In this document: one piece after another, positions 7,015-21,579 of the stretch
Layout: every line of letters starts with the position of its first letter
Position numbering within the stretch: the stretch's first letter is position 1
The notes under the pieces: generated by a model
Database searches by the model: none
What the model was told of the DNA's origin: nothing
What the model saw: the letters and a program-made list of their open reading frames with translations, nothing else
Source of the DNA: a virus
Taxonomy: Duplodnaviria > Caudoviricetes
DNA: 55,572 nucleotides
IMG/VR virus record: IMGVR_UViG_3300043413_000016
Location: 1-55,572 of that record
Reading direction: 5' to 3' (one strand)
Translations under genes and position numbers: made by a program

Positions 7015-7020
7015 GTCGCT

Positions 7021-7050
7021 ATCCTATGCGATCCCGCGATCAATGCGCAA
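7021..7050 (-). promoter_or_regulatory. leftward sigma70-like promoter, probably leaderless
   Basis: TTGCGC-N18-TAGGAT-N6-ATG(7014). Confidence 0.6.
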
Positions 7051-7091
7051 GTGTGCTGTTGCACTGTTACATATTTGTTTGCGTTTACGCG

Positions 7092-7120
7092 TTGACAGCC
7101 GCATTGCATCGGTGCATAGT
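7092..7120 (+). promoter_or_regulatory. rightward sigma70-like promoter
   Basis: TTGACA-N17-CATAGT upstream of the rightward operon. Confidence 0.75.
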
Positions 7121-7186
7121 CCAGCCCATGCGCTACCCGAAGTGCCCAGCACAGTGCGGGGCCGGCAGCGCTAGGAGTCACACACG

Positions 7187-7597: not shown

Positions 7598-7727
7598 GGG
7601 GCGGCTGGGAAATTGTGCAATCCATGATTCAGCCGCCAAAGCCAAAGCGCACGCCTTGGGAGCTGGATGTGGTGGTAATAGCCTGGCTGGCGGTGCTGGT
7701 AGCTGTACTCATCAGGCTGGGTGTCAT

Positions 7728-7937
7728 ATGAGCGACCGCCGCGAACAACGTGCAGCCGAAGCTGCTTGGCGTGAGTCCCAGCGCGGCGTGCTTCACGACG
7801 AGCACGACGCTGCAACAGACCCTGAAGGGCTGCCGCCGCTGACGAAGGCACTGGCAGCACTGGCCGCGTTGCTGGCTGGCGTGGCGGGGTTTGTCGGCTG
7901 GGTGCTGCCGGCCATTGCCGACAAGGTGTTCCTGTGA
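7728..7937 (+). CDS. small membrane protein
   Basis: MSDRREQRAA...; C-terminal hydrophobic helix. Confidence 0.55.
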   Translation: MSDRREQRAAEAAWRESQRGVLHDEHDAATDPEGLPPLTKALAALAALLAGVAGFVGWVLPAIADKVFL

Positions 7938-8249
7938 TGGGCCGCCACTCTGCTGCTGCCGTTGTCGTGGCGCTGCTCAACATGGTCATTCTGGCCCTGC
8001 TTCTGCGCGCAGGCTTGGCGCTGTGGGTTGACTGCGGCAAAGCCTGCGGCGCAAAGGCGCGCGCCAAGCAAACCCAAGAACGACCGAAGGATGCTCGATG
8101 AAGCAAGCCAACAACCTGGGCGCCATGCTGCTGGCCAGCGGCGCCGTCACCGGCCCATACCGGCGCACCAAGCCGCTGCCCGTGAGTGCTGCGCGGCGTG
8201 TTTGGCGCGCGGTGCGGGCGTACATCCGAAACATGACAAAGGAGATCCT

Positions 8250-8912
8250 GTGAACGATCAAGCAATGGCTGCGCTTTATTCCGCGCTGGCCCAGGCGCAA
8301 GCCGAGTTCCAGCCGATCACGAAGAACCGTGAAGTGATGATCACCATGAAGTCGGGCGGCAAATACAAGTTTCGCTACGCCGACCTTGATGAAATCAACC
8401 TGCGCACCAGGCCAGCACTGACCAAGTACGGACTGGGCCTGATGCAGATTGTCAGCAGCGAGCCTAGCGGGGCTACGTTCATCGAAACCCGCCTGACCCA
8501 CAAGGACGGCGGCAGCGTGTCGGCCCGCCTGGACATCAAGGGCCCGCGCGAGTACCCCGACCCCAAGGAGTTTGGCGCCGTGGTCAGCTATCTGCGCCGC
8601 TACCAAGTTACGCCGATGCTGGGCGTGGCCGCTGATGACGACATTGACCAGCGCCCGCGCCACCCGACCGGCGACCAAGACGACGGCGGCAGGCAAGACG
8701 ATGACGGCTCTGAAGTGAGCGCCATCGTCAACGAACTGATCGCCAAGGCCAGCGCAGTCACCACCGACGCCGAAGCCCTCAAGTTCTGGAAGGACAACAA
8801 CGGCAAGTTGGCGCGCTGGCCGAACGCGCACGCCGAGTTCAAGCAGGCCGTGGCCAACCAGCGCAGCCGCATTGCCGAAGCAGCCAAGACGACGGCAGGG
8901 GCCGCGTCATGA
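8250..8912 (+). CDS. erf: ERF-family single-strand annealing protein
   Basis: ALAQAQAEF...YKFRYADLDEI...GAVVSYLRRY...DDD; GGAG RBS before GTG 8250. Confidence 0.9.
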   Translation: MNDQAMAALYSALAQAQAEFQPITKNREVMITMKSGGKYKFRYADLDEINLRTRPALTKYGLGLMQIVSSEPSGATFIETRLTHKDGGSVSARLDIKGPREYPDPKEFGAVVSYLRRYQVTPMLGVAADDDIDQRPRHPTGDQDDGGRQDDDGSEVSAIVNELIAKASAVTTDAEALKFWKDNNGKLARWPNAHAEFKQAVANQRSRIAEAAKTTAGAAS

Positions 8913-9631
8913 CCATCATCTGGTGCAACGACCCCCAGGGCAGTGATGAATGGCTTGCCGCGCGCCGTGGCGCCATCACCGGCAGCCGCGCCAAGGATGC
9001 CCGCGACCGCCTGAAGAACGGCAGCCCGGGCAGCAAGATGCTGACCTATGCCATGGACACCGCCCGCGAGCGTGAAGGCGGCCAGCCGCTGGCCCAGGGC
9101 CAAAACACCGCCATGCGGATCGGCACAGAACAGGAGCCAATCGCGCGCATGAAGTACGAAGCCTTTACGGGCGAACTGGTGGAAGAAGTGGGTTTTGCGC
9201 ACACCCATGACGGCCGGTTTGGCTGCAGCCTGGACGGCAGAGTGGGCCCGAACGGTGCAATCGAGGTCAAAACGCTGGTGGGCAGCACAAGCCTGTTCGC
9301 TGCCCTGGTTGACGGCGACATCAGCGAGTACCGCGACCAGTGCCTGATGGCCATGTGGCTGCTGACGCTGGACTGGGTTGACGTGGTTCTGTGGGCCCCT
9401 GACCTTGACCTGTTGCGCGTGGTGCGCGTGAACCGCGACGAAGAAGAGATTGCAGCCTTCGAGGCTGACATGCTGCTCTTCGACCGGCTGGTTGAGAACT
9501 ACCGCGCCAAGTTGCGTGGCGTCATGGCGGTGCTGCGCGGCGAGGACGAACTGCCCGAGCCCGCCCAGGCACCAGCAGCACCCACCCCACAAGCCACCAC
9601 CCAACTTGCGCCGCTTGAGCCGGCATTCTGA
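8909..9631 (+). CDS. YqaJ/lambda-exonuclease family protein
   Basis: QGSDEWLAARRG.ITGS, G.EQEP.AR, GCSLDG, IEVK motifs. Confidence 0.92.
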   Translation: MTIIWCNDPQGSDEWLAARRGAITGSRAKDARDRLKNGSPGSKMLTYAMDTAREREGGQPLAQGQNTAMRIGTEQEPIARMKYEAFTGELVEEVGFAHTHDGRFGCSLDGRVGPNGAIEVKTLVGSTSLFAALVDGDISEYRDQCLMAMWLLTLDWVDVVLWAPDLDLLRVVRVNRDEEEIAAFEADMLLFDRLVENYRAKLRGVMAVLRGEDELPEPAQAPAAPTPQATTQLAPLEPAF

Positions 9632-9633
9632 CC

Positions 9634-10074
9634 GTGGACAACACCAAACCCAAAGCACCCCACACCCCGGGCCCGTGGCGCTGGGAAATCAGCATGAATA
9701 GCAAGCGCCTGCACTTGGTGGGCGGCAAGCCCATGTACGACCTGAGCATCATGGACTTTGACCGCTGGGGCATGAGCAGCGCCGTTGTGACCCTGCGCGA
9801 CACCGCGCACGACGGCATGAACATCATGCACCGCCTGCCTGACCGGCCTGATTGGATCGCGCCGTTTCCTGGCCGCGAGCATCACGCCAGTTGGTGCCAA
9901 GACATCACGCACCCCGACATGCGTTTGATGGCTGCTGCACCCGACCTGCTGGATGCGCTGATCGTGCTGGTGGAAAAAAATGCCGACTACATGCGCCGCA
10001 ACAACCTGGGCGACCCCGAGCGCGAAGACGCCACCAAGCAAGCCCGCGCTGCCATTGCCAAAGCCACCGCCTGA
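9634..10074 (+). CDS. phage hypothetical protein (HTPGPW...AAAPDLL type)
   Basis: HTPGPW N-terminus and AAAPDLLDAL...ARAAIAKA C-terminus. Confidence 0.8.
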   Translation: MDNTKPKAPHTPGPWRWEISMNSKRLHLVGGKPMYDLSIMDFDRWGMSSAVVTLRDTAHDGMNIMHRLPDRPDWIAPFPGREHHASWCQDITHPDMRLMAAAPDLLDALIVLVEKNADYMRRNNLGDPEREDATKQARAAIAKATA

Positions 10075-10085
10075 AAGACGCCACC

Positions 10086-11399
10086 ATGAACACCGAAGTG
10101 ATCGACCGGCCCACCGTGGCCGAACAAACCCCCAGCGCCATCGCCACCAGCATCACCACGGTGCAAGGCGAAGTTGCCAAGTTCGACCAGATTGCAGCCG
10201 GCCTGGCCGCCATCGAAGCTGCACACCCGAAGAACGTGATCGTTGCCGCCATCGACACCCCGGCCGGGATGAGGCTGGCCGAGGCATCTTGGCGCGCGTA
10301 CCGCAACCCGCGCCTGGAGGTGGAGAAAGCCCGCAAGGCAGCCAAGGCCCCGGTGCTGGCGCTGGGCAAAGCCATCGACAGCTTTGCCGCCGACCTGGAG
10401 GCGAAACTGCTGGCCGGTGAAGAGCACTACAAGGCCCAGATCACCGCCGAGGAAGCCCGCCGCGAAGCCGTGAAGGCCGAAGCCGCGCGCAAGGAGGCCG
10501 AGCGCCTGGCCGGCCTGCGCCAAGAGGTTGACGTTATCCTGGCCGGCTGGCTTGACCGATGCACGACCCAGGGCATGACCGCCGACCGCGTGGCTGCTGG
10601 CATCACAGCCCTGACCGCCGCCGCCATGCCTGCCGACCGTGGTTTTCAGGACGTGGCCGCCCACTGGGGCAGCGCAAAGCTGTTGACCTTGGGCAAGATG
10701 GAGCGCATCCGCCTTGACTTGGAACGCGCCGAACTGCAGGCCCAGCGCGAAGAACAGGCGCGTCAGGACGCCGAGCGCGCCGCACAGCAGGCTGCTGAAC
10801 TGAAGAAAGCCCGCGATGAAGCCGCCCGGCTCACAAGCCTGAGCCGGCGCATCAGCGAAATCCACGCTGCCGCCACTGGCCACGAACGGGCCAGCGCCTG
10901 GGACTTGTTCGAGGCCATCACCGCCGTGGAGGCCCTGGACGTGAGCGAAAGCACCTATCAGGAATTCGCAGCTGCTGCCCAGGCCGCGCAGGCATCGACC
11001 CTGGCGGCACTGCGGGCGAAGCACAGCGCCGCCATGGCGCGCGAGGACGAGCGGGCGAAAGCCTTGCAGCAAGTCAGCCAGGACGCCGACGCACAGGTGC
11101 AGGCCGCCTGTGGCATCCCCGCGCCGCTGCTGCAAGACGCATCACGGGGCCTGTTTGATGCCTTGGCCAGCAAGCCCGACGCCATGATGCACGCACGCGA
11201 GGCTGCGGCTGCCATCGCCGCATCGCAGCCCGAGCCCACTGCGCCAGTTGCCGATGACAACTACTCAGAGCGGCACACGCTGGCCCTGTGCCGCGAAGCC
11301 CTGGAGATGCTCGCCCCCGAAGGTGACTGCAGCCTCTGGAGCGATGCGCATACAGCAGCCTTGCGCACGGCCGTTGACTGCTTTGAAGCGACAATCTAG
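10086..11399 (+). CDS. coiled-coil phage protein
   Basis: Long Ala/Glu/Arg-rich helical ORF from ATG 10086. Confidence 0.8.
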   Translation: MNTEVIDRPTVAEQTPSAIATSITTVQGEVAKFDQIAAGLAAIEAAHPKNVIVAAIDTPAGMRLAEASWRAYRNPRLEVEKARKAAKAPVLALGKAIDSFAADLEAKLLAGEEHYKAQITAEEARREAVKAEAARKEAERLAGLRQEVDVILAGWLDRCTTQGMTADRVAAGITALTAAAMPADRGFQDVAAHWGSAKLLTLGKMERIRLDLERAELQAQREEQARQDAERAAQQAAELKKARDEAARLTSLSRRISEIHAAATGHERASAWDLFEAITAVEALDVSESTYQEFAAAAQAAQASTLAALRAKHSAAMAREDERAKALQQVSQDADAQVQAACGIPAPLLQDASRGLFDALASKPDAMMHAREAAAAIAASQPEPTAPVADDNYSERHTLALCREALEMLAPEGDCSLWSDAHTAALRTAVDCFEATI

Positions 11400-11406
11400 C
11401 CACAAC

Positions 11407-12117
11407 ATGACCCTGATTCGCAAACCAAAACCCGACGGCCGCAAGAGCGGCGCGTACATCGGATACGGCGCAATGGCCCAGCTGCTGGTTGTGCTGAAGG
11501 AACCGCAGACGGCAATCAGCGCAGCCGAAATCACTGGGGTCCACCCGTTGGCGCTGAAGCCGCTGTTCAAGCAGTTCATGGCCCTCAATCTGCTGGATAG
11601 AGTTGGATGGAACGGCTCAAAGCGCGGTTTCGCCTCCCCAATCTATCGCATTGGAACGGGCCAGCGCTACCCCGCGCCGATCATGCGCAACGGCCAGCCG
11701 CAGACGCACGCCGATCACATGCCGCCACTGCGCCCGCGCGTTGTGGCATTCGCCAGCATCGTGCACGCCTTGCAACAGGGCCCCTCGCCGATCTCCGAGA
11801 TATGCCATCAGTCAGGCGTGCAGGAGTCAAACCTGCGCCCGGCCATGCGAGCACTGCACAAGGGCCGGCTGATCTACAGGGCGGCATATGAGCGCCTGAC
11901 GCCTCGTGCATCAATATCGACCCTTTGGGCCTGGGGCTCTGGTCCAGACGCCAAGAGGCCGCCAAAAAAGGCCAGGGTCTACGTCACTGCCGCCACAACA
12001 AAAGCGCCACGGAGTTCGTGGACTGTGGCGGTGGCGGCCCTGAAGCGACAAGCCGGGATCGCGCGGCCTTCGTGCCGAGAGATCGCACAGCAACCTGGCG
12101 CAGAGATGCAGCCATGA
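11407..12117 (+). CDS. tandem winged-HTH protein
   Basis: Two wHTH-like segments (TAISAAEITGV...; PISEICHQSGV...LHKGRLI). Confidence 0.6.
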   Translation: MTLIRKPKPDGRKSGAYIGYGAMAQLLVVLKEPQTAISAAEITGVHPLALKPLFKQFMALNLLDRVGWNGSKRGFASPIYRIGTGQRYPAPIMRNGQPQTHADHMPPLRPRVVAFASIVHALQQGPSPISEICHQSGVQESNLRPAMRALHKGRLIYRAAYERLTPRASISTLWAWGSGPDAKRPPKKARVYVTAATTKAPRSSWTVAVAALKRQAGIARPSCREIAQQPGAEMQP

Positions 12118-12368
12118 GCAGAGACTGCGAACACGGACAGCTTGCCAGGAGCTGCGACCGCTGCGCAGACGCGGCAGAGATCGCAGATTTACACCAGCAA
12201 CTGGCCGCAGAGCGCAAGCGGTGCTCGAAGCTGCGCCGCCTGCTGCAAGAAGCCGACGTCTTGTTTACACCGCTGTGCAAAGACGCCACTGCGTGGAACT
12301 GGTTGGATGAGGCGCGGGCCTCTTGCAGAGATGTCGCGCGACAGCCTCACGTAGAGATGCAGCCATGA
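12114..12368 (+). CDS. hypothetical protein (CEHG..RSC..C motif)
   Basis: ATGA overlaps at both ends. Confidence 0.75.
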   Translation: MSRDCEHGQLARSCDRCADAAEIADLHQQLAAERKRCSKLRRLLQEADVLFTPLCKDATAWNWLDEARASCRDVARQPHVEMQP

Positions 12369-12613
12369 ACATGCAGCAGCTTCGGCGCCGACAGGCAGCA
12401 CGCCAGCTTGAACACTCGCGCATCTGGGCGCCTGACCGCTTCGACGTGCGCTACAGCGACCGAGACGAGGAAGACAACTACTTCCACGACGACGATGGCG
12501 AGGTGCGCAACGTGACTTGCAAGCACTGCCACGGTACGGGCGGCGACCCGTGGAACGACGGCATCTTGCCGTGCGAGCACTGCGACGGCGAAGGCTACGA
12601 GTGGTGGAAGTGA
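12365..12613 (+). CDS. DnaJ-type zinc-finger protein
   Basis: CKHCHGTG...CEHCDGEG. Confidence 0.75.
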   Translation: MNMQQLRRRQAARQLEHSRIWAPDRFDVRYSDRDEEDNYFHDDDGEVRNVTCKHCHGTGGDPWNDGILPCEHCDGEGYEWWK

Positions 12614-12620
12614 ACCTGAA

Positions 12621-12724
12621 GCCGAACGTGGTGGTAACGCGGGCCCAAAAGCGCGAGCCACTGCCGGAATGACCAGCGAGAGCGAGGCCCGCTTTTGGGG
12701 CTCGCGTTGACCAACCTGTTCGGC
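12621..12724 (-). mobile_element. attC-like recombination site 1
   Basis: GCCGAAC...GTTCGGC ends; arms GGT-AACGCG / CGCGTTGACC with the extra base in the right arm. Confidence 0.85.
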
Positions 12725-12746
12725 CTGGTGCCGAAGCGAAAGGGCG

Positions 12747-13022
12747 ATGAAAATGACGATGGAAGAAGCGCTTCAGATCATGAAAGGCCAGTCAAATGGG
12801 TTTATGGTCTCTTTTGAACGCAGAGATAGTTATGCTCTGGTGAGTGACCACTTTCCGGACGTGAAAAGCGGAGAGCCTGCAATTGAGACCGAGGAAGAAG
12901 CATGGCGGATGGCGAGGCAGTTTGCTGCCAAGACTCAGGGCCGCTGCTTAAACGTGCGCGTTATCCATAGCGATTACTCGCCAGTTTCCAGCAGCATCAA
13001 TCGGGTGATTAAGAACCGATAG
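12747..13022 (+). CDS. cassette hypothetical protein
   Basis: Single ORF between attC1 and attC2, lower GC by eye. Confidence 0.8.
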   Translation: MKMTMEEALQIMKGQSNGFMVSFERRDSYALVSDHFPDVKSGEPAIETEEEAWRMARQFAAKTQGRCLNVRVIHSDYSPVSSSINRVIKNR

Positions 13023-13024
13023 AT

Positions 13025-13093
13025 GCCGAACGCAGAGTTGTGCGGCTCGCCGAAGCGCAGCGTAGGCGAGTCCGAACGAACGCCGGGTTATGC
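13025..13093 (-). mobile_element. attC-like recombination site 2
   Basis: GCCGAAC...GTTATGC; the minus strand reads GCATAAC-CCGGC-GTTCGTTCGGACTCGCC with extra C and A. Confidence 0.85.
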
Positions 13094-13117
13094 CGCTGAT
13101 GGAAACGGAGAACGGGA

Positions 13118-13480
13118 ATGACGGAGGACTACAAGAGCATGTTTGAACAGGCCGTGCGCACGCTGGCCGCGATTGATGATGCACTCGGGATCGGTGGCGA
13201 CGGATGCGGCGACCCTGACCAGACGCTAACCGCGATTGAGGAATTGAAGGCGGCAAAAGTCGTCGCTGGCAGGACGGCGACAGTAACCCGAGAAATGATA
13301 GGCGCAGCGCATGACGTGATGCTGGCGAAAGGCGACTTTGTTCTTTCCGCCAACCTGCTTGAGCGCATTTACGTGGCGATGGATCAGGCAGCGCCGCCAC
13401 CACAAACGCCGTTTGATACTTGCCCGACGTGTGAGGCGCTGGCCCGCACGGTGATGATGGATCAGACGGGTGCGGCATAA
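13118..13480 (+). CDS. cassette hypothetical protein
   Basis: GGAG RBS; stop TAA lies inside GCATAAC. Confidence 0.8.
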   Translation: MTEDYKSMFEQAVRTLAAIDDALGIGGDGCGDPDQTLTAIEELKAAKVVAGRTATVTREMIGAAHDVMLAKGDFVLSANLLERIYVAMDQAAPPPQTPFDTCPTCEALARTVMMDQTGAA

Positions 13481-13568
13481 CGTAGAGGTAACCGGGTGAC
13501 GCCCGAAGAAAGGTTCGATATGCAGACGACGGATGCCAGCGGCACTCCGGTTGACCGCCATGTTAGGC
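13475..13568 (-). mobile_element. attC-like recombination site 3
   Basis: GCATAAC...GTTAGGC; GGT-AACCGG-GTG pairs with CACTCCGGTTGACC. Confidence 0.88.
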
Positions 13569-13879
13569 CACTGCGGCCATACATGTGCTGGTGTGGCGAC
13601 CCTGCAGACGGGGCCGTGCTGGCTTGGGCGCACACCGCGCAGGATGCCCGCAAGCTGGCGTATCCGGCCATTGCAGACTGGACGGATGCGGGCTTCACCG
13701 ACGTGCGCGCCAGGCTGCTGAAGGCCCACCCGGCGTACTACGAGACGCTGAAACTGAAGGACGGCCCGCACGTCAACGACTGCCCGCCGGTGTGCCCGCG
13801 CTGTGAGCAATGGGGCCAGCCGCTACTGCGTAATGGCTACGGCTGCATGCACTGCGGCGATGATGAACCTGTGGCCTAA
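13496..13879 (+). CDS. cassette zinc-finger protein; start lies inside attC3 (GTG 13496 or ATG 13520)
   Basis: CPRC...CMHC; stop TAA inside GCCTAAC. Confidence 0.8.
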   Translation: MTPEERFDMQTTDASGTPVDRHVRPLRPYMCWCGDPADGAVLAWAHTAQDARKLAYPAIADWTDAGFTDVRARLLKAHPAYYETLKLKDGPHVNDCPPVCPRCEQWGQPLLRNGYGCMHCGDDEPVA

Positions 13880-13977
13880 CGTGGGGGCTAAGGCGACCAC
13901 GGCGGCGCAGATAAACAACCCGGAGCGGCGCGCAACCTGTCCGCCGCTGTGGGTCGCCCTTGAGCGACAGGTTAGGC
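13874..13977 (-). mobile_element. attC-like recombination site 4
   Basis: GCCTAAC...GTTAGGC; GCT-AAGG-CGACC pairs with GGTCGCCCTTGAGC. Confidence 0.88.
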
Positions 13978-14003
13978 CACGCTGTGGCCGGAGCGAGAAA
14001 ACG

Positions 14004-14222
14004 ATGGAACACCCGACAACCGCTAAAAACGTGGCGTTCTGGGCACAACTGGTGCTTGCGAACGTGTGGCTGGCGTCGGAGGTCAGATGGTTGGCGCTGC
14101 CGTATATCTTGATGGCGCTGGCGATTCGCCTGCCGCACTGGCTGCGCGCATGGAAGCGGCGCCGCCCAAACCGAGGCTCCAAGACACGATTCTTACCTCC
14201 TTGGAGGCGGGGAAGACCGTGA
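14004..14222 (+). CDS. cassette small membrane protein
   Basis: Two hydrophobic segments after ATG 14004. Confidence 0.6.
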   Translation: MEHPTTAKNVAFWAQLVLANVWLASEVRWLALPYILMALAIRLPHWLRAWKRRRPNRGSKTRFLPPWRRGRP

Positions 14223-14404
14223 CTGTTGGGGAAGTCTGTTCGCTACTTGATGAGAAGGGAATCCACGCCAAACGGGATGTTGTGTACGCGACACTTTTCC
14301 GCCTAGCTGGTTTTGGTTTACTCACTAAGGTTAGCCCTGGTGTATACCTCAGACCGCACGAAAAGCAGCAGCCCATCTTGCCGCCAGATGAGACTGGGGA
14401 ATAG
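14150..14404 (+). CDS. winged-HTH protein or fragment
   Basis: TVGEVCSLL...VYATLFRL...LLTKVSPGVY; low-GC patch; start uncertain. Confidence 0.5.
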   Translation: MEAAPPKPRLQDTILTSLEAGKTVTVGEVCSLLDEKGIHAKRDVVYATLFRLAGFGLLTKVSPGVYLRPHEKQQPILPPDETGE

Positions 14405-14696
14405 CTTTGACTTCGAGAAAAGGCGAACGGCCCACAGGTTCGTACCCTGTGAGCCGTTCTTTTGTTCAACCAATGCCGCGAGAGCAGCGCAGGTCGAGCG
14501 CACCAATCGACCGGAAAGGAAGATCGAGTGCCTAGCAACCACCGCAGGTTCATAACGTAGCGGCGGCGCCAGTGCTCGCATAGTAACTTCGGCGGGCTTG
14601 CCTGTCGAGGAAAAAGTGCGCCGTACTGGTGCTGCCTTGCCACGTCTCAGCCCCTGGCCGAAACCGGCTGGGCCCTGGTGGCCGGAGAGGAAACCG

Positions 14697-14858
14697 ATGA
14701 CGATCACGTTTCAAGGACACGTCGAAGCGCTGGAGGCGGCGGCGCCGTCCCAGGTGGTGGTGAAGCTGCGCACGCCGATTGAACCGGCAGGCGGGCACCA
14801 GATGACGCTTCGCCTTCCGGCGCCTAACGACGAAGCTCAGCCGACAAGGAGGCCATGA
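14697..14858 (+). CDS. short hypothetical protein ending inside attC5
   Basis: GAGAGG RBS; stop overlaps the next ATG. Confidence 0.55.
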   Translation: MTITFQGHVEALEAAAPSQVVVKLRTPIEPAGGHQMTLRLPAPNDEAQPTRRP

Positions 14859-14921
14859 CCATGCACGAACACGAGACACCGCAGCTAGCCGACGCAGGTC
14901 GGCTGGAGCGCCCTGATGGGC
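14822..14921 (-). mobile_element. attC-like recombination site 5 (degenerate inverse core)
   Basis: GCCTAAC...GATGGGC; GCTC-AGCCGAC pairs with GTCGGCTGGAGC. Confidence 0.75.
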
Positions 14922-15196
14922 GGCTGATGGAACAGCGCGCAGCATTTGAGGCATGGCTGAACCCAGGCGGCCACGCGGGCAATGTCTCGCCGTGGGTCGA
15001 ACCCGGCCGCTACGAAAAGGACACGCACCAGCTTGCTTGGCTGGCGTGGCAGCGATGGGAAGATGCGCTGCGGCAGACGTGGCAGATGGTGGACCCGCTG
15101 AAGCCGGCCGGGCAGCCGGGCAGCTACTGGCGCGGCCAGGATGCAGGTATCACCGACGCCTTGACCGCGCTGCGGGCGAACCTCAAGACCGTGTAG
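14855..15196 (+). CDS. cassette hypothetical protein; RBS and ATG inside the attC5 loop
   Basis: AAGGAGG at 14846-14852; RAAFEAW...AWLAWQ motif. Confidence 0.8.
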   Translation: MTMHEHETPQLADAGRLERPDGRLMEQRAAFEAWLNPGGHAGNVSPWVEPGRYEKDTHQLAWLAWQRWEDALRQTWQMVDPLKPAGQPGSYWRGQDAGITDALTALRANLKTV

Positions 15197-15226
15197 AAAC
15201 CAAGTGATTTAACAATAGGATTTGAC

Positions 15227-15487
15227 ATGAACGAAACTCCAGTTCAAAAGGTCGCCCGCTACGTTGCTGAATTTGATTACGAAACAGCTAGGGCACTTCA
15301 GATCGTGGGCGACCGTGTTGCATGGCGTGGGCTTACGAAAGATGAGATCTTGGCAATCTGGAACTTTGGATTTGTTGCGACCATGGAGATGAGGGCGGAT
15401 GTTCGCTTGAAGATTGATTCGCTGCCGACTAAGACGCCTAACGTGGTGGTAACGCGGACCCAAAAGCGCGACGAGGCGCCCGAGTAA
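15227..15487 (+). CDS. hypothetical protein ending in the attC6 loop
   Basis: AGGA RBS; C-terminus PNVVVTRTQKR encoded by the attC arm. Confidence 0.75.
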   Translation: MNETPVQKVARYVAEFDYETARALQIVGDRVAWRGLTKDEILAIWNFGFVATMEMRADVRLKIDSLPTKTPNVVVTRTQKRDEAPE

Positions 15488-15538
15488 CGCCGCCAAAGCT
15501 GGCCCGCTTTTGGGGCTCGCGTTGACCTGATGTTGGGC
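15436..15538 (-). mobile_element. attC-like recombination site 6
   Basis: GCCTAAC...GTTGGGC; arms nearly identical to attC1. Confidence 0.88.
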
Positions 15539-15808
15539 CTGTTGGCAAAGGAGCAGAAATTGGAAAAGTTCGCAGCCTTGAAGAAGGCAAAACTGGATGA
15601 ACCGCACTTCCCGAACGACTATTGGGGCAACAAAAACCCGCGTTGCCCACACTGCGGCACTGAATGCGAAGTCAGCGACAACGACTGGTGGCAACTGTAC
15701 GAAGAAGGCGAGCACGAAGTTTCGTGCCCGCACTGCGACGGCGATTTCACAGTCAGCACGAAAGTTAGCTTCAGCTTCAGCACTGATGAGCAGGACGAAG
15801 ACGATTAG
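15530..15808 (+). CDS. cassette zinc-ribbon protein (start possibly TTG 15560)
   Basis: CPHCG...CPHCD; AAGGAG before 15560. Confidence 0.8.
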   Translation: MLGLLAKEQKLEKFAALKKAKLDEPHFPNDYWGNKNPRCPHCGTECEVSDNDWWQLYEEGEHEVSCPHCDGDFTVSTKVSFSFSTDEQDEDD

Positions 15809-15859
15809 GCCCAACGTGCTATAGGCGACTTGCCACGCTAATTTGCACAAAGTTTAAGC

Positions 15860-16270
15860 ATGCTGCGATTCGGACGGAAGAAACCACAGCGCGACCCCCG
15901 CGCGATGTCAAGAGCCCGCGATGCAACTGCGGCGGCGCTGACTGCTGCGGGTGTTGAGCAGCGCGAAGACGCGGACCAACGCACTGCCTGGCCAGTGATG
16001 TGCGACTTCCCGGGCGTGCGGATTTGCTGGACAGCAACGCCGCGCCGTCGCTACATCACGTATCGGGTGACAGATGACGAAACAGGCAAGCTGGTGATGG
16101 TTGGCACGCCAAAAGCGATCTATGCAGAGGTGGCAAAGCGGCTGCCAGAGGTGCGCCGGCCGCCCAGCAAAGACATGCAGCACTACAGCGCACGCGACGA
16201 AGCAGACGCCGCAGCGGCGCAGCTAGCGCCTGCGCAGCTGAATTATCCAGAAATATCCTGGAAACGATAA
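15860..16270 (+). CDS. hypothetical protein, last rightward gene
   Basis: ORF converging on the lysis genes. Confidence 0.6.
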   Translation: MLRFGRKKPQRDPRAMSRARDATAAALTAAGVEQREDADQRTAWPVMCDFPGVRICWTATPRRRYITYRVTDDETGKLVMVGTPKAIYAEVAKRLPEVRRPPSKDMQHYSARDEADAAAAQLAPAQLNYPEISWKR

Positions 16271-16330
16271 AACGATAACTCGCCAAATTTTTGTATATTT
16301 CTTTGGCGGTGCGGCATGCTGAGTAACTGT

Positions 16331-16669
16331 TTATGGCCTGCGCTCAAAGTGGGGTACATCTTTAAAAGACTTCCAGAAGCCGCCCCATGCGTTTTTTGGG
16401 TGCAAGCTCTGCCAATACTCGCCCAGCGGTGTCAGTGTCGGCACGTCGTAGCACAGCCGCCCGTCAACAAACACGTTGAGGTCAATCGCGCAGCGCCGTA
16501 GGTGGTTGCTGTGCAGGGTCTTGCTGCGGCCGGCCCGCACATGAATGGCCTGCTGCTCAGGGGTGCGGTAAAGCTCCCCGCCAGTGACCACGAAACCAAG
16601 TTCATCGGCCTTGTTGAGCAACAGGCACACATGGCGCAGGAATTCGGCTTGTTCTGTTACCAAGCTCAT
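16331..16669 (-). CDS. endolysin, peptidase M15 family
   Basis: RTPEQQ...SNH...AIDL...WGG.W...DVPHFE. Confidence 0.92.
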   Translation of the reverse strand: MSLVTEQAEFLRHVCLLLNKADELGFVVTGGELYRTPEQQAIHVRAGRSKTLHSNHLRRCAIDLNVFVDGRLCYDVPTLTPLGEYWQSLHPKNAWGGFWKSFKDVPHFERRP

Positions 16670-17214
16670 TGTTTGCCACCAAGGGCCGCGATAGTCGCGT
16701 CTTTGGACTGACTGCTGCGGCTGCTGCCCCGGTGCCATTGCAGCACGGTTCCACACAGGGCCATCAGCGCACCCCACACCGCAAAAGCCTGCTCACGGTT
16801 CTGTTCTGGAATGGCAGTAAACATGATCGCTGCGCTCATTGCCAAGGCTGCAAAAATGACGATGAAGTCAATCACATAGCCCGTGTTCTTTGCCAGCCAG
16901 GATGAATTCCCAGACTCTTGAATGCGCGCGTTTGCAGAACGAGAATCTGCAACGTCCGCCAGCTCCGCCTTTTTGGCGTCAAACCACTGCTGGCGCTTTG
17001 CAAGCACAAACGCGTGCAGGTCGTCTTCTCGCTCAGCCTGTAGCTGCTGAAGCCTAATTCTTCCCTCTTCGCTGCCCAGGCTCTGCTCAATATCAACGCC
17101 CAGCTTTTCTTCGATTGCCGCTTTGCCTTTTGCAAGCACCGCGCTGCCAAGCAGGCCCAAGCCTTCGGCCGCCAGCTTTGACGCCAGGCCCTTCAGTGCG
17201 ATGGCGGCAATCAT
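16666..17214 (-). CDS. holin-like membrane protein
   Basis: Two C-terminal TM helices and GSSRSSQSKD tail; adjacent to the endolysin. Confidence 0.7.
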   Translation of the reverse strand: MIAAIALKGLASKLAAEGLGLLGSAVLAKGKAAIEEKLGVDIEQSLGSEEGRIRLQQLQAEREDDLHAFVLAKRQQWFDAKKAELADVADSRSANARIQESGNSSWLAKNTGYVIDFIVIFAALAMSAAIMFTAIPEQNREQAFAVWGALMALCGTVLQWHRGSSRSSQSKDATIAALGGKQ

Positions 17215-17543
17215 GGTTTTGCCACCGCCGCAGGAACAGGGATGGCCGCCCGTACCGCGTGCAGCGTGATCGCCACCTCGTAGGCAAACGCCAGCACCGC
17301 GATGATAGCCAGCAGGCCAGACGCCGCCTTTGCCAGATTGCCGAGTTGCGTGGTGGGTTTCGCCGCGTGTATTCGCTCGTTGACAAGCCTCACTTGATCG
17401 TCAACATAGTCGCGCGTCGCAAGCCGCGCCACGGCCTGTTGCACACCTTCAACGTTACGGCTAAGTTGCTCAATTTGTGACATTACGTTGCCAAGGTGAA
17501 TGTCCAACTCACCGATGGTTGTTGCTTGCCGACGTTCGATCAT
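17211..17543 (-). CDS. coiled-coil plus single-TM lysis-cassette protein
   Basis: C-terminal TM helix; position in the lysis module. Confidence 0.65.
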   Translation of the reverse strand: MIERRQATTIGELDIHLGNVMSQIEQLSRNVEGVQQAVARLATRDYVDDQVRLVNERIHAAKPTTQLGNLAKAASGLLAIIAVLAFAYEVAITLHAVRAAIPVPAAVAKP

Positions 17544-17572
17544 ATTACCCTAACACTTTGTTACCACGAACA

Positions 17573-17956
17573 CTAAGCACTGGTGGTTTTGTTGGCCGCC
17601 AGCAACCGCCACAGCACAACCGCAACAAACATCACGCCCAAAGCGCCGAGGTCAAAGCCGGCTTTTGCGCTGCAGGTGGCCATGCCATCAGGCACAGGCC
17701 ATGGGTCTGCCAACATCCACGCGCTGCAAAGCGCAACCTGCAGTTCCTCAAACGCAAAGGCCGCGAACACCGGCCACCATCGTGCCTGCCACGCCAACGC
17801 CAGCAGGCCAAGCACACACAAAGCACTGGTCAGCTTCCATGTTTCTCCCTGCAGTTCTGGCGGAACCTTGTCCCAGACGTAGTGCCTGACCATCAGCAGC
17901 AGCGCCAGGACTGCGGGCAGGCTATGGGCGGATCTTTGGTCCACCGCCGCCGCCAC
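17573..17956 (-). CDS. multi-TM membrane protein
   Basis: About four hydrophobic segments. Confidence 0.65.
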   Translation of the reverse strand: MAAAVDQRSAHSLPAVLALLLMVRHYVWDKVPPELQGETWKLTSALCVLGLLALAWQARWWPVFAAFAFEELQVALCSAWMLADPWPVPDGMATCSAKAGFDLGALGVMFVAVVLWRLLAANKTTSA

Positions 17957-18020
17957 CGCGCACAGATTCCGCCATTCTCAGCAACATCTCAGCAATCCTG
18001 GCCCAAATTCGTGCAATCAT
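17922..18020 (-). CDS. 32-aa peptide MIARIWARIAEMLLRMAESVRGGGGGGPKIRP
   Basis: Hand translation; ATG overlaps the stop of 18017-18280. Confidence 0.45.
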   Translation of the reverse strand: MIARIWARIAEMLLRMAESVRGGGGGGPKIRP

Positions 18021-18280
18021 TTTTCCCCCCAAATGTCGGGTTTCTGCGCCTCACGCGCCGCCAGTCGCCAGATCAGGCCAGCCTCTTTGACTGCTGCCTC
18101 CAGCACCGCCTGGGTGCGCCCAGAGCCTGCCGCGCGGTCATTCATGCTGGCCATTGCCAGCTTGGCAATTTCGCACGTGACGTGCGTGCGCTCCTTCTCG
18201 GTCTCCGCGTCGCACAACGTCGCCTGCTGTTTCAGCAGCGCGACCTGCGCGTCGATGAACTCCTGCTGTGTAGCCATCAA
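18017..18280 (-). CDS. hypothetical protein
   Basis: Coupled ORF. Confidence 0.65.
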   Translation of the reverse strand: MMATQQEFIDAQVALLKQQATLCDAETEKERTHVTCEIAKLAMASMNDRAAGSGRTQAVLEAAVKEAGLIWRLAAREAQKPDIWGEK

Positions 18281-18735
18281 AGGCCCCTTCTCTGCAATCT
18301 GTCAAAAAGCCGCTTTCGGTGCCAGCGCCAGGTCTCGCCAGTAACGCCGTGAGCAGCCCCGGCTGCCACGTCTGTCTGACCGTCAATCCAGCGCTCGACA
18401 ATCTCTAGATCCCGGCCGCGCAGTGACTGCAAAATGCGCACGCGCTCTGCCGTGAGCGTCGATTCGACGGCCGTGCAGTCTGTGGTCGCGTGCCAGTCGT
18501 CCATTGGTACATGCATCGGCACGCGCTTAGCTTTGTACCCGTAGACTAGGCCCTGCACCGCGTCCAAGATTCGCCGCTGGAGAACGATCTGCAAGGCGTC
18601 GGGTTTCGCCAGCAGTGCCATCGCGGCTTCTTGTTCGGCGTCGTCCCGGTCGAATACCGCAGCAAGGCGCGCATTGCCTGGCTGCCGCGCCCAGTAGCTG
18701 GCGGCTGCTGTTACGCGCGGGTCAACAGCTTGCAT
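18277..18735 (-). CDS. ECF sigma-factor-like protein
   Basis: RDDAEQEAAMALL (region 2-like) and LRGRDLEIV...GQT...HGVTGETWRWHRKRLFDRL (region 4-like HTH). Confidence 0.6.
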   Translation of the reverse strand: MQAVDPRVTAAASYWARQPGNARLAAVFDRDDAEQEAAMALLAKPDALQIVLQRRILDAVQGLVYGYKAKRVPMHVPMDDWHATTDCTAVESTLTAERVRILQSLRGRDLEIVERWIDGQTDVAAGAAHGVTGETWRWHRKRLFDRLQRRGL

Positions 18736-19168
18736 GTGCGTAGCTCCATATCAGCAAGTGACGCACGCCGAATCTGTCCAAGCGTTCGCAGGTTGTCAGA
18801 CCGCCAGCCTCTAAAGCGCGTGCGATCAAACCGCTGCACACGTATCTGTCACGCCGCCCGGCATCGCGCCAAAGCAAAAAGCTGGCGATGTCCATTAAGT
18901 CGTAAGGCTCGCCCATGCGGTCAAGCAGCCAGTCTGCAGCCGCTCTTTCGTCAGGCAGCGGCACAGAGAGATCGGCAACCAATGTGCGCCCGTGCAGGAA
19001 CTGCTCCAGGCTGTGCGTGGCTACACCCTTGGGCCAACTGGCATCTACCACCGTCCCGTCACTGAGCACGGCCCCGCAGTGACTGGCCAAGCCGCCCTCA
19101 AAAGCACGGATAAGCCGGCTACCGACCTGCGCAAAGCCGGTGTCGGTGGCGGTGAACAGTATCCTCAT
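18722..19168 (-). CDS. permuted papain-like (NlpC/P60, YiiX-type) amidase
   Basis: SHCG precedes GEPYD...YVCSGL. Confidence 0.8.
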   Translation of the reverse strand: MRILFTATDTGFAQVGSRLIRAFEGGLASHCGAVLSDGTVVDASWPKGVATHSLEQFLHGRTLVADLSVPLPDERAAADWLLDRMGEPYDLMDIASFLLWRDAGRRDRYVCSGLIARALEAGGLTTCERLDRFGVRHLLIWSYAHASC

Positions 19169-19875
19169 CCCGCGCCTTCTTGGTACGTGGGCGGCCACTG
19201 CACCTGGCCTGGCGGTGTTCCCGCCTCAATGGCGGCCTGGGCCGCAGAGTCAATCGCGCCCTCTTGCCCCATTGCCGCGAGCAGCAGGTCGAACATCAGA
19301 CCGATGGTCAGGTTGACATCGCCGCCTGACATCATGCGCCACTTTTGCTGCAACCCCGTGCGGGGGTTGCGCATGGGCGCCGACGTGATGGCTGCCCATT
19401 GCTGGGCTGGCAAAATGGCCTTGAGAACGCCCACAACGCCGGCCATCATCAGGCCCATTTGCTGGTCGCGCGACTGGTAGTTGCTGTGCCACCAGACCGT
19501 CTGACCGTTGACCTGCAGCGGGAAACCGCCGTTGAGTTGCAGGCGCGTGCGGGTGTGGCGAATCAGGTCGGCACTAGTAGGGGCAGCGTAGCCAGGTACA
19601 CCCAACACCGATGCCACGGGGGCGCCGGTCCAGTAGTGCTGGCCAAGGGTCTGAATGAGCTGCTGCTGCCGGGCCTGGCCTTGCTCGTTGTTCGCCCAAT
19701 GGCCCATCCAAAACCAGCCCGATGCGACATTCGGCGCCTCTCCAGCGCTCCAATTCAACAACCCAATCTCACGCTGCAGCACGCCGCCCTGCAGCGACAA
19801 AATGCCATTGTCGTGCAGCAGTTGCGTCATTGCTGCCGGGGTGTCGGCGCGGATCACAATTGAGATTGTTGACAT
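19165..19875 (-). CDS. putative tail fibre accessory protein (DUF4376-like C-terminus)
   Basis: RTRLQLNGGF...WWHS...SRDQ...WRMMSG; follows the fibre gene. Confidence 0.55.
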   Translation of the reverse strand: MSTISIVIRADTPAAMTQLLHDNGILSLQGGVLQREIGLLNWSAGEAPNVASGWFWMGHWANNEQGQARQQQLIQTLGQHYWTGAPVASVLGVPGYAAPTSADLIRHTRTRLQLNGGFPLQVNGQTVWWHSNYQSRDQQMGLMMAGVVGVLKAILPAQQWAAITSAPMRNPRTGLQQKWRMMSGGDVNLTIGLMFDLLLAAMGQEGAIDSAAQAAIEAGTPPGQVQWPPTYQEGAG

Positions 19876-19884
19876 GATGCGTCC

Positions 19885-21579
19885 TTAGACTGTGAGAGCC
19901 TGCAGCGCGGCGCCGGTGATGTACTGGCCGGGGAGGACGCGCAGCTCGGCAATCTTGACCGCCTGGATCTGGTTGAGCCCGCCAGTGGTGAGCGCCCCTA
20001 GGATCAGATGCGTCGTACCGGCCCCCGTGAAGTCGAAATTGCTGATGCTTTGCACTGCCCCGCCGTTGACGCTCATCAGCAGATTGGTGCCGCTCCACGA
20101 GATCGCCACCCGATTGAGAGAGCCGTCTGTCAGCTCGGGCTGCGTGGCGACGGCCGCCCCGTTACCGCTGGCGAAAACCCCGGTCGGCGCGCAGGAGATG
20201 CGGGCGAAGTTGCCCGTTGCCAACGACGCCCCAGCGCTTAGGGCCAGGAGTGCTTCGTTGCCGTCCGATGCGTAGGGCTTGCAGTACTTGAGGATGATGG
20301 TGTTGGCGCCCCACCCCGCGGGGAACAGCGCAGCCAGCTCCGAGCCCGTTATCGCGTGGCCTGGAACATCAGCAGCGCGGGTGACCGTGCCGGTGCCGGG
20401 GTTGGGAATGTAGCTGGTGGGATAGGCGCCGGGTTCGGCGTTGCGGACGGACACCCTAATAGCCGTAGCCCCGGTTGCGCCGCTGTACGCCTCCGAGGTG
20501 CCGTCAGCGCTGGCGCCAAAAACAACAGTGTTAAACCCGTCAAGTGCGGCTGCAACCGTCACGATACAGCGCCACCAACCCGACTCTGCGGCCACGGTGC
20601 GACCGGAGAGGCCCGCCGACACCGACACCACCGCCCCGGCAGCAAGGTTAAAAAACGCAAACTGCAGCGCGCCGGCTGAGTCAATCAAACGCAAGTACAC
20701 GTAGTCCCTCGCTCCGGCTTGCGCCAAAAACTCGATCGTGTGAGCTGCGCCAGTCGTCGGCACCGTCTGGAAAAACCGGTGGAATCCCGAGCTGGCATCC
20801 TCAACAAGCGCCGCACCTGCAACGCCGTCTGGTGCGAGTACCGGGCTCAGGTCTACACCAGTGCGGGACCACACAGGGTTGGTTAGATCCGCTGGCGATG
20901 CAAACAGCTGCGTCCTCGCCCCCTCCAGCAGCAGCCCCGGAACGCCGTGCGTGTAGTCGGGGGTGCGCATGAGGAAGACGGGGGAGGTGGTGGTGGGGAC
21001 GTATTCCAGCGCGACGGGGCCAAAATTCAGCTGCACGTCGGTAACAGTAAATGTTTCCCCGTTGCTCGACAAATCAGATGCGTTGACAAACCCAAATATC
21101 TGGAGCCCTTCACCAGCAGCGCTAGCGTTTGTTACCGTAAAACTAAAAACTGTAGGTGTTGTCGTAGCCGTAAAATCGGCTGAAAAGTTGTCAACAACCC
21201 CACCGTGTGTGTTTTTTAATCTGAAACGCTTTGTGCCGGCCGCCACCGAAACCTTTGCTTGAACCGTAAATGTTTGCCCAGCGGTGGCAATAGACACGAA
21301 TTGTCTGACCTCTGAAGCTATTCCGGCTCCGATAGTGACGGTGCTTGCAGTGCTTGACGCACCAAGCGTACCGTTCCAGGACGCAGCTGCAAGGTTTTGA
21401 CTTTGCAGCAGCAGGTTATGCGCCCCATACACCACATCCCCGTCGCTCTCCTGCATCGTCCCCGCGCCTGTGCGGGTCCAGCCAAAGCGGGTGCGCAGGT
21501 CGGTGGCGGTCAACGCTGCAAAATTGAGCACGCGGGGGCCAAGGGCCGCACCGCGCAACAAGCTCAGCGGCAACGGCAT
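19885..21579 (-). CDS. fibre/spike protein with carbohydrate-binding-like domains
   Basis: NLLLQSQ, GLLLEGART and PTSYIP...VTRAAD motifs; ATG 21579. Confidence 0.75.
   Translation of the reverse strand: MPLPLSLLRGAALGPRVLNFAALTATDLRTRFGWTRTGAGTMQESDGDVVYGAHNLLLQSQNLAAASWNGTLGASSTASTVTIGAGIASEVRQFVSIATAGQTFTVQAKVSVAAGTKRFRLKNTHGGVVDNFSADFTATTTPTVFSFTVTNASAAGEGLQIFGFVNASDLSSNGETFTVTDVQLNFGPVALEYVPTTTSPVFLMRTPDYTHGVPGLLLEGARTQLFASPADLTNPVWSRTGVDLSPVLAPDGVAGAALVEDASSGFHRFFQTVPTTGAAHTIEFLAQAGARDYVYLRLIDSAGALQFAFFNLAAGAVVSVSAGLSGRTVAAESGWWRCIVTVAAALDGFNTVVFGASADGTSEAYSGATGATAIRVSVRNAEPGAYPTSYIPNPGTGTVTRAADVPGHAITGSELAALFPAGWGANTIILKYCKPYASDGNEALLALSAGASLATGNFARISCAPTGVFASGNGAAVATQPELTDGSLNRVAISWSGTNLLMSVNGGAVQSISNFDFTGAGTTHLILGALTTGGLNQIQAVKIAELRVLPGQYITGAALQALTV

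Follow-up and report, generated by a model that had tools for sequence, protein, structure and literature searches.

Integrase-less clusters of attC sites are already known from phages (PMC9892861). Qi, Rajabal, Ghaly, Tetu and Gillings (Front Microbiol 2023) report there that 10,705 phage genomes yielded 17 CALINs and 3 complete integrons, with IntI1 recombining five of the six phage attCs tested. The arrays of TJE1 and PH101 are described as structured like typical bacterial arrays, and those of Vibrio and Shewanella phages as pieces of a host integron. Outside integrons, Loot et al. (bioRxiv 10.1101/2022.09.11.507474) describe attG cassette insertion, with single cassettes entering bacterial chromosomes. 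The array analyzed here lies in a 55.6 kb phage record with direct terminal repeats (55,572 nt, the whole of which we call the window). It shares with the phage CALINs of PMC9892861 a row of attC sites between small genes in a phage without intI. Unlike the arrays as described in that paper, it has all of its genes on the attC bottom strand and cassettes that are common to many uncultivated phage contigs, and those relatives that encode intI carry it at the downstream end of the operon. We found no description in the literature of this inverted, operon-embedded layout or of a shared phage cassette pool.

Class 1 integrons have the same site architecture. Their cassette genes, however, are carried by the attC top strand, with Pc as the driving promoter, whereas here the genes occupy the opposite strand and neither intI nor attI was found in the window. 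The class 1 sites used for comparison were of the aadA type (Escherichia phage P1 isolate MH445380, locus L010). Two phage sites, L022:4930-4989 and L103:1184-1239, agree as reverse complements with the aadA-type consensus across the R boxes, spacers, and L boxes. Sedentary chromosomal integrons and the Vibrio and Shewanella phage fragments MK672802 and MZ568829 resemble the array in their many small genes of unknown function and in having families of similar attCs common to different cassettes. Arrays of this type keep the canonical gene orientation, in contrast to the present one, whose cargo recurs in phage contigs. Insertion of the attG kind described by Loot et al. offers a possible IntI route by which a first cassette could have entered a GWT site of the phage in either orientation; the likeness lies in the end of the array as a lone half-core beside unrelated DNA. 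Reconstruction of an empty target site for this phage did not succeed.

The record encodes a helicase, primase, Erf, exonuclease, endolysin, portal protein, large terminase, and major head protein. At 12621-15815, within the replication and recombination gene block, it carries six attC sites (A to F) and one terminal half-core, in line with a preliminary description of this DNA that had placed an integron-type array without intI inside a phage early block. CALINs are recognized by at least two attCs in a row with no intI nearby; here there are six, and the 55,572-nt record is free of intI. The locus is not a complete integron (intI, attI, and Pc), as it has no intI and no attI-like region, and the canonical cassette, a gene on the attC top strand followed by its attC, does not occur in it. 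We consider it highly probable that the region is a true integron cassette array (CALIN) in the replication and recombination block, with each unit made up of an attC followed by one or more small genes.

The palindromes of 69–104 bp noted in the preliminary description were all recovered at their positions, each on the minus strand as an attC. Site A (12621-12724, 104 nt), the last site of the array in the minus (top) strand reading, has the plus-strand cores GCCGAAC...GTTCGGC and folds end to end (z −5.4), with single-base bulges at 15 and 22 of the minus-strand 5′ arm. Site F (15436-15538, 103 nt; GCCTAAC...GTTGGGC; z −3.1) belongs to the same sequence family. Site B (13025-13093, 69 nt; GCCGAAC...GTTATGC) travels with cassette c2. 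Site C (13475-13568, 94 nt; GCATAAC...GTTAGGC) has bulges at 15 and 22, and its loop contains the ribosome-binding site and ATG of c3. Site D (13874-13977, 104 nt; GCCTAAC...GTTAGGC) corresponds to inverted repeat I8, and site E (14822-14921, 100 nt; GCCTAAC...GATGGGC) holds the c4c stop and the c4d start in its loop. The array closes with the half-core GCCCAAC (15809-15815; GTTGGGC on the minus strand), which is complementary to the 3′ core of site F, has neither a hairpin (z +1.2) nor a match to the covariance model R2 introduced below, and forms the top-strand start junction of the array; c5-like genes in L133 and L134 end in a half-core in the same way.

Known attCs are imperfect hairpins of 57 to 141 nt, with L boxes, a spacer left unpaired at the center, and a loop that varies. 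Sites A to F, at 69–104 nt, have paired L boxes and a spacer of 5 nt on either side, and five of the six show the inverted xxxxAAC...GTTxxxx cores. The proposed RYYYAAC/GTTRRRY-like form was only partly borne out: AAC and GTT close five sites, but site E has GAT in place of GTT, and GCCGAAC and GCATAAC deviate from RYYY, leaving AAC/GTT alone as strictly kept. A strict RYYYAAC/GTTRRRY scan returned only D and F, and GTT-anchored scans pass over site E. Folding by itself is unconvincing as proof of the sites, with z-scores of −1.5 and −1.4 for C and D and +0.85 for B beside those of A and F.

Site identity was examined with a covariance model, R2, for which 40 sites were taken from other contigs and none from the window. 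Its training sites were picked by our own structural detector; they are paired in 82.1% of cells, compared with 27–45% in slid controls, and covary strongly, including at the L-box pairs. Run on all 55,572 nt, both strands, with filters off, R2 returned exactly sites A to F, all on the minus strand, at E values from 4e-11 to 0.005: A at 30.0 bits (E 3.7e-5), B at 54.6, C at 49.6, D at 33.1, E at 39.0 (E 2.5e-7), and F at 21.3 (E 0.005). One additional weak, partial match fell at 3698-3741 (E 0.57), and the same six stretches read as plus strand scored at most 10.6 bits. On the coding strand of class 1 attCs the model gave 57.4, 57.4, 55.5, and 48.4 bits, and Shewanella attCs were matched too. 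An attC covariance-model search of both strands had been suggested with the preliminary description; with R2 as a surrogate made from phage-family sites, it recovers all six sites at E ≤ 0.005. A second model, R1, made from 4 class 1 attCs, is too narrow, recovering a single real attC at E < 0.01 across two real integrons; its top match and only find in the window was site B (16.4 bits, E 0.04). A MAFFT alignment of mixed real attCs was dropped because it is not structure-aware. Sites A to F are confirmed as genuine integron attC sites.

These sites also have a clear polarity. On their coding strand, the real attCs of three complete integrons have an internal loop after the 7-bp R box and, in the 5′ arm, single-base bulges at 15 and 19–23. 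On the minus strand, sites A, B, and C show bulges at exactly (15,1,0) and (22,1,0), and extrahelical bases at 15/16 and 20–23, as in 14 of 14 real attCs, mark the minus strand as the top strand. A strict detector, which made 1 call in ~107 kb of other phage DNA, scored A, B, C, D, and F as inverted and 14 of 14 real attCs as canonical. The preliminary description had set the crossover at G|TT of the plus-strand 3′ core; this placement does not hold, as the bulges, the terminal half-core, and the homology breakpoints of relatives all put the attC top strand on minus. Each unit therefore reads attC then ORF, with the ORFs antisense to the canonical orientation. The genes share a strand with the attC bottom strand, which folds and is cut, so the units would have been built by IntI-type recombination with the crossover at AA|C in the 5′ cores of the plus strand, equivalent to G|TT on minus. 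R2 matches lay opposite to the strand of the query gene in 245 of 247 cases over 80 metagenome loci and in 68 of 68 over 44 viral loci (313 of 315 overall), and there were none in 23 weakly related viral loci (~205 kb).

Every gene of the array is encoded on the plus strand, in the direction of the phage operon, and carries a coding signature. Unit 1 (12627-13030) joins the site A body to ORF c1 (12747-13022, 91 aa, GC 0.50), which has a plus-strand coding signature and no match in Pfam or PHROG; its cores, GTTCGGC/GCCGAA, are complementary. Unit 2 (13031-13480) consists of the site B body and c2 (13118-13480, 120 aa), and unit 3 (13481-13879) of the site C body and the zinc-ribbon-like c3 (13520-13879), a relative of which in L137 (74% amino acid identity) has the same layout, between two sites of equal polarity. 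Unit 4 (13880-14827), with complementary cores GTTAGGC/GCCTAA, holds the site D body, c4a/c4b (14004-14404), a terminator-like hairpin (14425-14459), and the start of c4c. The site E body, c4d (14855-15196), and c4e (15227-15487) make up unit 5 (14828-15441), the cores of which are not complementary. Unit 6 (15442-15814) pairs the site F body with c5 (15530-15808), a double zinc ribbon that matches phrog_6504 (E 2.6e-7) and has cassette-like relatives in L132–L134. A scan for promoters and terminators gave counts no higher than the shuffled-sequence level. The cassette genes would be expressed by read-through from phage promoters and not from an integron Pc. A comparison of ORF lengths between strands (19 versus 7) was set aside as uninformative in GC-rich DNA, and a GC3−GC2 test used in its place gave 46 of 52.

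The five core pairs listed in the preliminary description are exact 7-nt complements, as read directly from the sequence. The 3′ core of one site and the 5′ core of the following site complement each other exactly in four of the five adjacent-site units, and in five of six units when the terminal half-core is counted; the exception is the unit between E and F (GATGGGC versus GCCTAAC). Across the viral relatives and the window, unit ends are complementary in 32 of 52 units, compared with 16 of 89 within single sites. These counts support the earlier reading of the complementary cores as a footprint of IntI-type recombination. Together with breakpoints at the cores and IntI beside related arrays, they predict IntI recombination at the cores of this array.

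Cassette boundaries can also be seen in the relatives of c2, which number 104 in metagenome contigs and 38 in viral contigs (324 c2 protein clusters at E ≤ 1e-10). Homology runs from 13025/13082 through 13478-13495, and in 118 related loci the homology to the window is restricted to the c2 unit and ends at GCATAAC, with none extending to 13562. The site B body precedes c2 in five further contigs, identical in L047, L049, and L051 and with a one-base change in L026 and L027, and the outer 5′ core differs each time. In 26 distinct contexts, the site bodies upstream of c2 form 13 clusters and those downstream form 25. On the evidence of the c2 relatives, attC sites travel with the gene 3′ of them. 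Since c2 has at least 13 upstream bodies, this linkage is not absolute, and some exchange at 3′ cores or homologous recombination must occur too; homologous exchange may operate alongside IntI. No joints indicating excision or variant arrays were listed for the assembled contigs of 4 runs, contigs being unable to reveal rare forms. Loose contig ends, in single short contigs only, agree with the c2 boundary (13482 in X12).

The absence of intI noted earlier was upheld by a TIGR02249 profile search of the record (0 IntI candidates) and by tblastn with a related IntI as query (no match in the window). Integrases were found beside such arrays only in related phage contigs. That of viral record G008 scores 450 bits against TIGR02249 (cut-off 265) and is 54% identical to IntI1, and IntI homologues at 57% and 64% are encoded directly downstream of c2-bearing arrays in L012 and L064. 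The IntI-bearing contigs also encode phage primase, terminase, integrase, and RecT, and in three related phage contigs intI lies 3′ of the array in the same direction as the cassette genes. An integron type with intI and cassette genes in one transcriptional direction is exemplified by Treponema. The likeness to this type, as mentioned in the Methods of PMC13323075, ends with that direction: in G008, L012, and L064 intI and the attC top strands are opposite and face outwards, as in the regular type. The reversed part in these contigs is the genes within the cassettes, and intI is downstream of the genes, not upstream.

In the present phage, an integrase would be supplied in trans, either by the IntI of a related temperate phage or by a host integron. 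The preliminary description had favored the host; a co-resident phage is no less likely to provide it than a chromosomal integron of the host. An exact 20-mer of sites A/F revealed no host integron in 185,579 species genomes, which is a weak test, and the lone 20-mer match lay inside a coding gene and was taken as chance. The exact 21-mer and 23-mer of sites A/F had 0 occurrences in viral contigs, and megablast of window positions 9000-20000 against 50,697 phage records gave no match. No relatives were obtained with the flanking genes at 11407-12117 and 15860-16270 as queries; a flanking 437-aa protein has 2 related loci, the better of which stops at the gene. A candidate attI remnant after the array was rejected for now (z ≤ 1.3 against the attI regions of G008, L012, and L064). 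The post-array region resembles that of L133 (z 4.0).

An integron piece captured once, by illegitimate or homologous recombination, could by now be inert, with no recombination in the lineage. Such a history would fit a window with neither intI nor attI, and runs X4 and X5, from studies that also include a possible source sample, carry the same array without joints. The GAT core of site E and the non-complementary cores of unit 5 fit it as well, and suggest that part of the array may be decaying. Yet five of the six sites retain full attC geometry, core complementarity is exact in most units, and the genes keep a coding signature and the direction of the phage operon. The GC content of the cassettes, which spans 0.50–0.67, suggests separate acquisitions. 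In addition, complete phage genomes without intI hold up to 14 such sites (L102/G005), so integrase-less arrays are a regular state in these phages. We regard an inert remnant as unlikely; the array may be active in this phage today.

More improbable still is a shuffling of modules by the Erf and exonuclease of the phage, with the palindromes as portable homology and no site-specific integrase, because homologous exchange neither makes nor keeps complementary unit ends. The sites have true attC geometry, some being near-identical to true attCs, and a true IntI adjoins three such arrays, features that this explanation does not account for, although it would accommodate the position of Erf and exonuclease upstream of the array in the same gene block, the 13 upstream bodies of c2, and the occurrence of one site body beside different genes (L038, L047, L051, and L064). 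That the palindromes are ordinary intergenic terminators or REP-like repeats, attC-like by chance, is barely credible. They are intergenic GC-rich hairpins, had no Rfam match at gathering thresholds, and in B, C, and D have unremarkable fold z-scores, but no T-run follows any of the six, R2 finds real attCs and the array sites alike, the L-box pairs covary, the cores are hybrid as recombination predicts, and relatives encode IntI. A cassette array assembled by IntI-type recombination remains the reading we prefer.

Integrons are usually seen as bacterial devices that are occasionally taken up by phages, and this array suggests a broader role. In many uncultivated phages the attC machinery appears to organize accessory genes, and it does so in a layout that suits a phage operon read in one direction; the c2 cassette is spread over more than 100 contigs, and some of these phages encode true integron integrases. 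We give even weight, for and against, to a wider proposal in which freshwater- and wastewater-type phages, probably infecting Betaproteobacteria, have an integron design of their own: a shared pool of bottom-strand cassettes, early-operon arrays read from phage promoters, and an IntI that some temperate members encode at the distal end of the operon and that integrase-less members, this phage included, borrow in trans. If true, the integron architecture of these phages would be a distinct one, and it would give them a major, site-specific means of exchanging genes. Some phage sites are near-identical to aadA-type attCs, which is relevant to the origin of class 1 cassettes. If the sites are active, they would represent a site-specific, measurable component of phage mosaicism in this group, with cassette boundaries predictable to the base, and the small early-operon proteins would form a defined set to screen for host-takeover or anti-defense activity.

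The cassette array at 12621-15815 is a real feature of the phage genome. All six imperfect palindromes noted in the preliminary description are present, as sites A (12621-12724), B (13025-13093), C (13475-13568), D (13874-13977), E (14822-14921) and F (15436-15538), followed by a terminal lone core, GCCCAAC, at 15809-15815. Its five complementary core pairs are likewise exact; the exception among the units is E-to-F, where GATGGGC faces GCCTAAC. Thermodynamic folding backs sites A (z -5.4) and F (z -3.1) alone, with B, C and D inside the shuffle range, so attC identity is argued here from architecture and comparison instead of stability.

For the architecture, the reference attCs were those of three complete integrons that Qi et al. 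2023 name: a Vibrio phage integron (MK672802), a Shewanella phage integron plus CALIN, an attC cluster without integrase (MZ568829), and the class 1 array of a P1 isolate (MH445380). When folded under forced core pairing and read along the strand that encodes the cassettes, real attCs share an internal loop just past the 7-bp R box, then two single-base bulges in the 5' arm, one at position 15 and one at 19-23. In the window the signature falls on the minus strand: the bulges of sites A, B and C are at precisely 15 and 22, and those of D and F are close to these positions. A strict signature detector called all 14 of 14 real attCs canonical, returned one call in about 107 kb of other phage DNA, and scored A, B, C, D and F as inverted, along with one unrelated canonical call in the window at 52580-52644.

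Covariance models gave the same polarity. R1, built from four class 1 attCs, was too narrow, reaching E <0.01 for only one Shewanella attC across two real integrons; within the window it scored site B best, on the minus strand (16.4 bits, E 0.04). The second model, R2, derives from 40 distinct sites of other contigs, with the window left out, and its alignment shows strong L-box covariation (82.1% of cells paired versus 27-45% in slid controls; covariation score 0.413 versus <=0.137). In the window R2 picked out the six sites, each on the minus strand (54.6, 49.6, 39.0, 33.1, 30.0 and 21.3 bits), and nothing more than one weak partial match elsewhere; the plus-strand reading of the six stretches scored <=10.6 bits. 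The same model recovers class 1 attCs on the aadA/cmlA coding strand (57.4, 57.4, 55.5, 48.4, 30.8 and 18.9 bits) and Shewanella attCs, also on the coding strand. From this comparison of sequences, we conclude that sites A-F are true attC sites whose canonical top strand is the minus strand of the window.

The genes of the array lie on the other strand. Plus-strand ORFs fit between the sites, with stops at or within the 5' cores, and carry the GC2-low, GC3-high signature of the phage's genes, whereas long minus-strand ORFs are without it; in addition, c5, the ORF of unit 6, matches a PHROG family. Together these place the array genes on the plus strand, opposite the attC top strand. Cassette GC is 0.50-0.67, compared with about 0.63 for the backbone. 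The start codons of c3 (unit 3) and c4d (unit 5) fall inside attC variable loops (site C, 13496-13568, and site E, 14855-14921, respectively), as does the c3 ribosome-binding site, and a c3 relative in locus L137 has the same start-in-loop arrangement.

This polarity bears on where the cassettes are joined. The crossover had been placed at G|TT of the plus-strand 3' cores, a reading that would leave the core at 15809 as an unexplained half-site at the 3' end of the array; on the minus strand the same core reads G|TTGGGC and fits as the junction at the array start. Placing the crossover at AA|C in the 5' cores of the plus strand yields six units, 12627-13030, 13031-13480, 13481-13879, 13880-14827, 14828-15441 and 15442-15814 (units 1 to 6), each beginning with its own attC body. 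Relatives of c2, the ORF of unit 2, allowed the boundaries to be compared. When the whole window was aligned by blastn with 118 loci that hold such relatives, homology was limited to the c2 unit, its right edge falling at 13478-13495 and its left edge at 13082 or 13025-13029; none of the 118 reached 13562, the crossover position proposed earlier.

The c2 cassette is shared widely. Relatives with up to 94% amino acid identity occur in metagenome contigs (104, 80 of them kept) and viral contigs (38); protein clusters related to c2 number 324 at E<=1e-10, and two clusters bear source names, a Betaproteobacteria MAG and an Afipia MAG. On the 3' side, relatives have a common ...GCATAAC and then diverge immediately into differing sites and genes; on the 5' side there is always a site ending GTTATGC. 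Loci with the window's site-B body have differing outer core letters (e.g., GCCG, GCCC, GCAT or CTTC before AAC), preceded by unrelated DNA. Across 26 distinct c2 contexts, the upstream site bodies form 13 clusters (largest n=9) and the downstream ones 25, indicating that an attC site is linked, if not strictly, to the gene after it. The layout of the window is also seen around relatives of c5 and c3 in other viral contigs.

Several further observations concern c2. Around PFDTCPTCEALARTVMMDQ, its last 17-25 residues have 77-100% matches in some 20 viral contigs (L106-L128) that are unrelated elsewhere and give no attC matches, and this C-terminal stretch looks like a small conserved zinc-binding motif. 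A copy in loci L091 (6001-6355) and L011, 94% identical in amino acids, ends in GCATAAC with no hairpin sites around it and may be a domesticated cassette that has lost its attC. In X12, one freshwater sequencing run from another study, c2-like contigs (window 13127-13417) have a summed depth of about 411 against about 2 for the rest of the phage, so the cassette is far more abundant there than the window phage.

The recombination footprint extends beyond this genome. Of 52 distinct units drawn from the window and its viral relatives, 32 have a 3' core exactly complementary to the 5' core of the following site, and in 46 the coding signature favours the attC bottom strand; the two cores within one site are exactly complementary in 16 of 89 distinct sites. 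At E<=0.001, R2 gave 247 matches in 80 metagenome loci, 245 of them opposite the query gene's strand by manual table reading, and 68 in 44 viral loci, all 68 opposite, in locus sets that overlap and retain duplicates. R2 matched nothing in 23 viral loci that are only weakly related (about 205 kb). Large arrays occur in complete phage genomes that lack intI, such as the 56-kb record behind L102 (100% complete by CheckV), with 14 R2 matches.

The 55,572 nt of the window are the entire IMG/VR virus record, which has direct terminal repeats. Among its products are a helicase, primase, Erf-like annealing protein, exonuclease, endolysin, portal, large terminase and major head protein. The array, preceded by a gene that ends at 12613, lies at the end of a plus-strand block (about 5,000-16,300) with the Erf and exonuclease genes, directly before the minus-strand lysis genes. 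No match was obtained in Rfam or by megablast against 50,697 phage records, and a search through the array-flanking genes found no close relatives. Upstream of the array, two consecutive genes have near-identical 17-nt ends (12101-12117 and 12352-12368; ...AGAGATGCAGCCATGA, peptide ...EMQP), each with a stop that overlaps the next ATG, which may represent another kind of repeated junction. Distant from the array, 53289-54091, part of a 747-aa minus-strand ORF, has 74-82% DNA identity to the ORF directly upstream of arrays in L028, L030, L037, L064 and L096. A single 3,090-aa ORF (23988-33260, minus strand) lies among the structural genes.

Searches of the window with the IntI profile TIGR02249 found no IntI, and tblastn found no homologue of the IntI of G008, the one of 13 related viral records that the profile matched (18,048 nt, classed as provirus; 450 bits, cut-off 265). 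G008 IntI shares 54% identity with IntI1, 44% with Shewanella IntI and 43% with Vibrio IntIA, and its record also encodes a primase, small and large terminases and a phage-type integrase. Eleven metagenome loci were searched for IntI by tblastn on DNA; homologues are present in L012 (57%), which has a phage integrase, and L064 (64%, partial), which has RecT. In all three, intI is directly downstream of the array and co-directional with the cassette genes, and the attC top strands point away from it, the regular integron geometry. Their attI regions (2455-2520 for the attI of G008) are mutually alike, two of the pairwise comparisons giving z 6.1 and 7.9, and the region after the array in the window shows no such similarity to them (z <=1.3). 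Just after the terminal half-core, 15816-15860 is similar to 2846-2900 of L133 and to L134 (local alignment z 4.0, common ...AATTTGCACAAA).

The interpretation offered in the preliminary description is supported in part: the observed array stands, the crossover moves to the other strand, and the IntI could come from either of two sources. The IntI of a co-resident G008-like phage or of a host integron would fold and cut the plus strand of the sites, excise units as circles and reinsert them. Among four runs compared as assembled contigs, which cannot show rare forms, two contain the array of the window and none has joints. Expression would probably occur by read-through from phage promoters; with the genes oriented this way, a Pc would transcribe the antisense strand. 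Within unit 4, after c4b, 14425-14459 can form a strong hairpin of 14 bp that has T-runs on either strand and looks terminator-like in both directions; no clear gene occupies the next 240 nt or so, and a terminator amid a read-through array is unexpected.

In the survey of Qi et al. 2023 (PMC9892861), 21 of 10,705 phage genomes carry CALINs or complete integrons, and phage attCs were shown to recombine through IntI1, making an integrase-less array in a phage an already known kind of element; the 17 phage CALINs of that study may include inverted cases among their attC orientations. In full-text literature that covers few subscription journals, we have so far found no account of phage cassette genes systematically on the attC bottom strand, of an intI placed last in a phage operon, or of a cassette pool common to phages. 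Some sites of the phage family are almost identical in sequence to the aadA-type attC of class 1 integrons: L022:4930-4989 and L103:1184-1239 (reverse complement) are near-identical to its consensus over the R, spacer and L boxes. This near-identity may be relevant to where those clinical cassettes came from.
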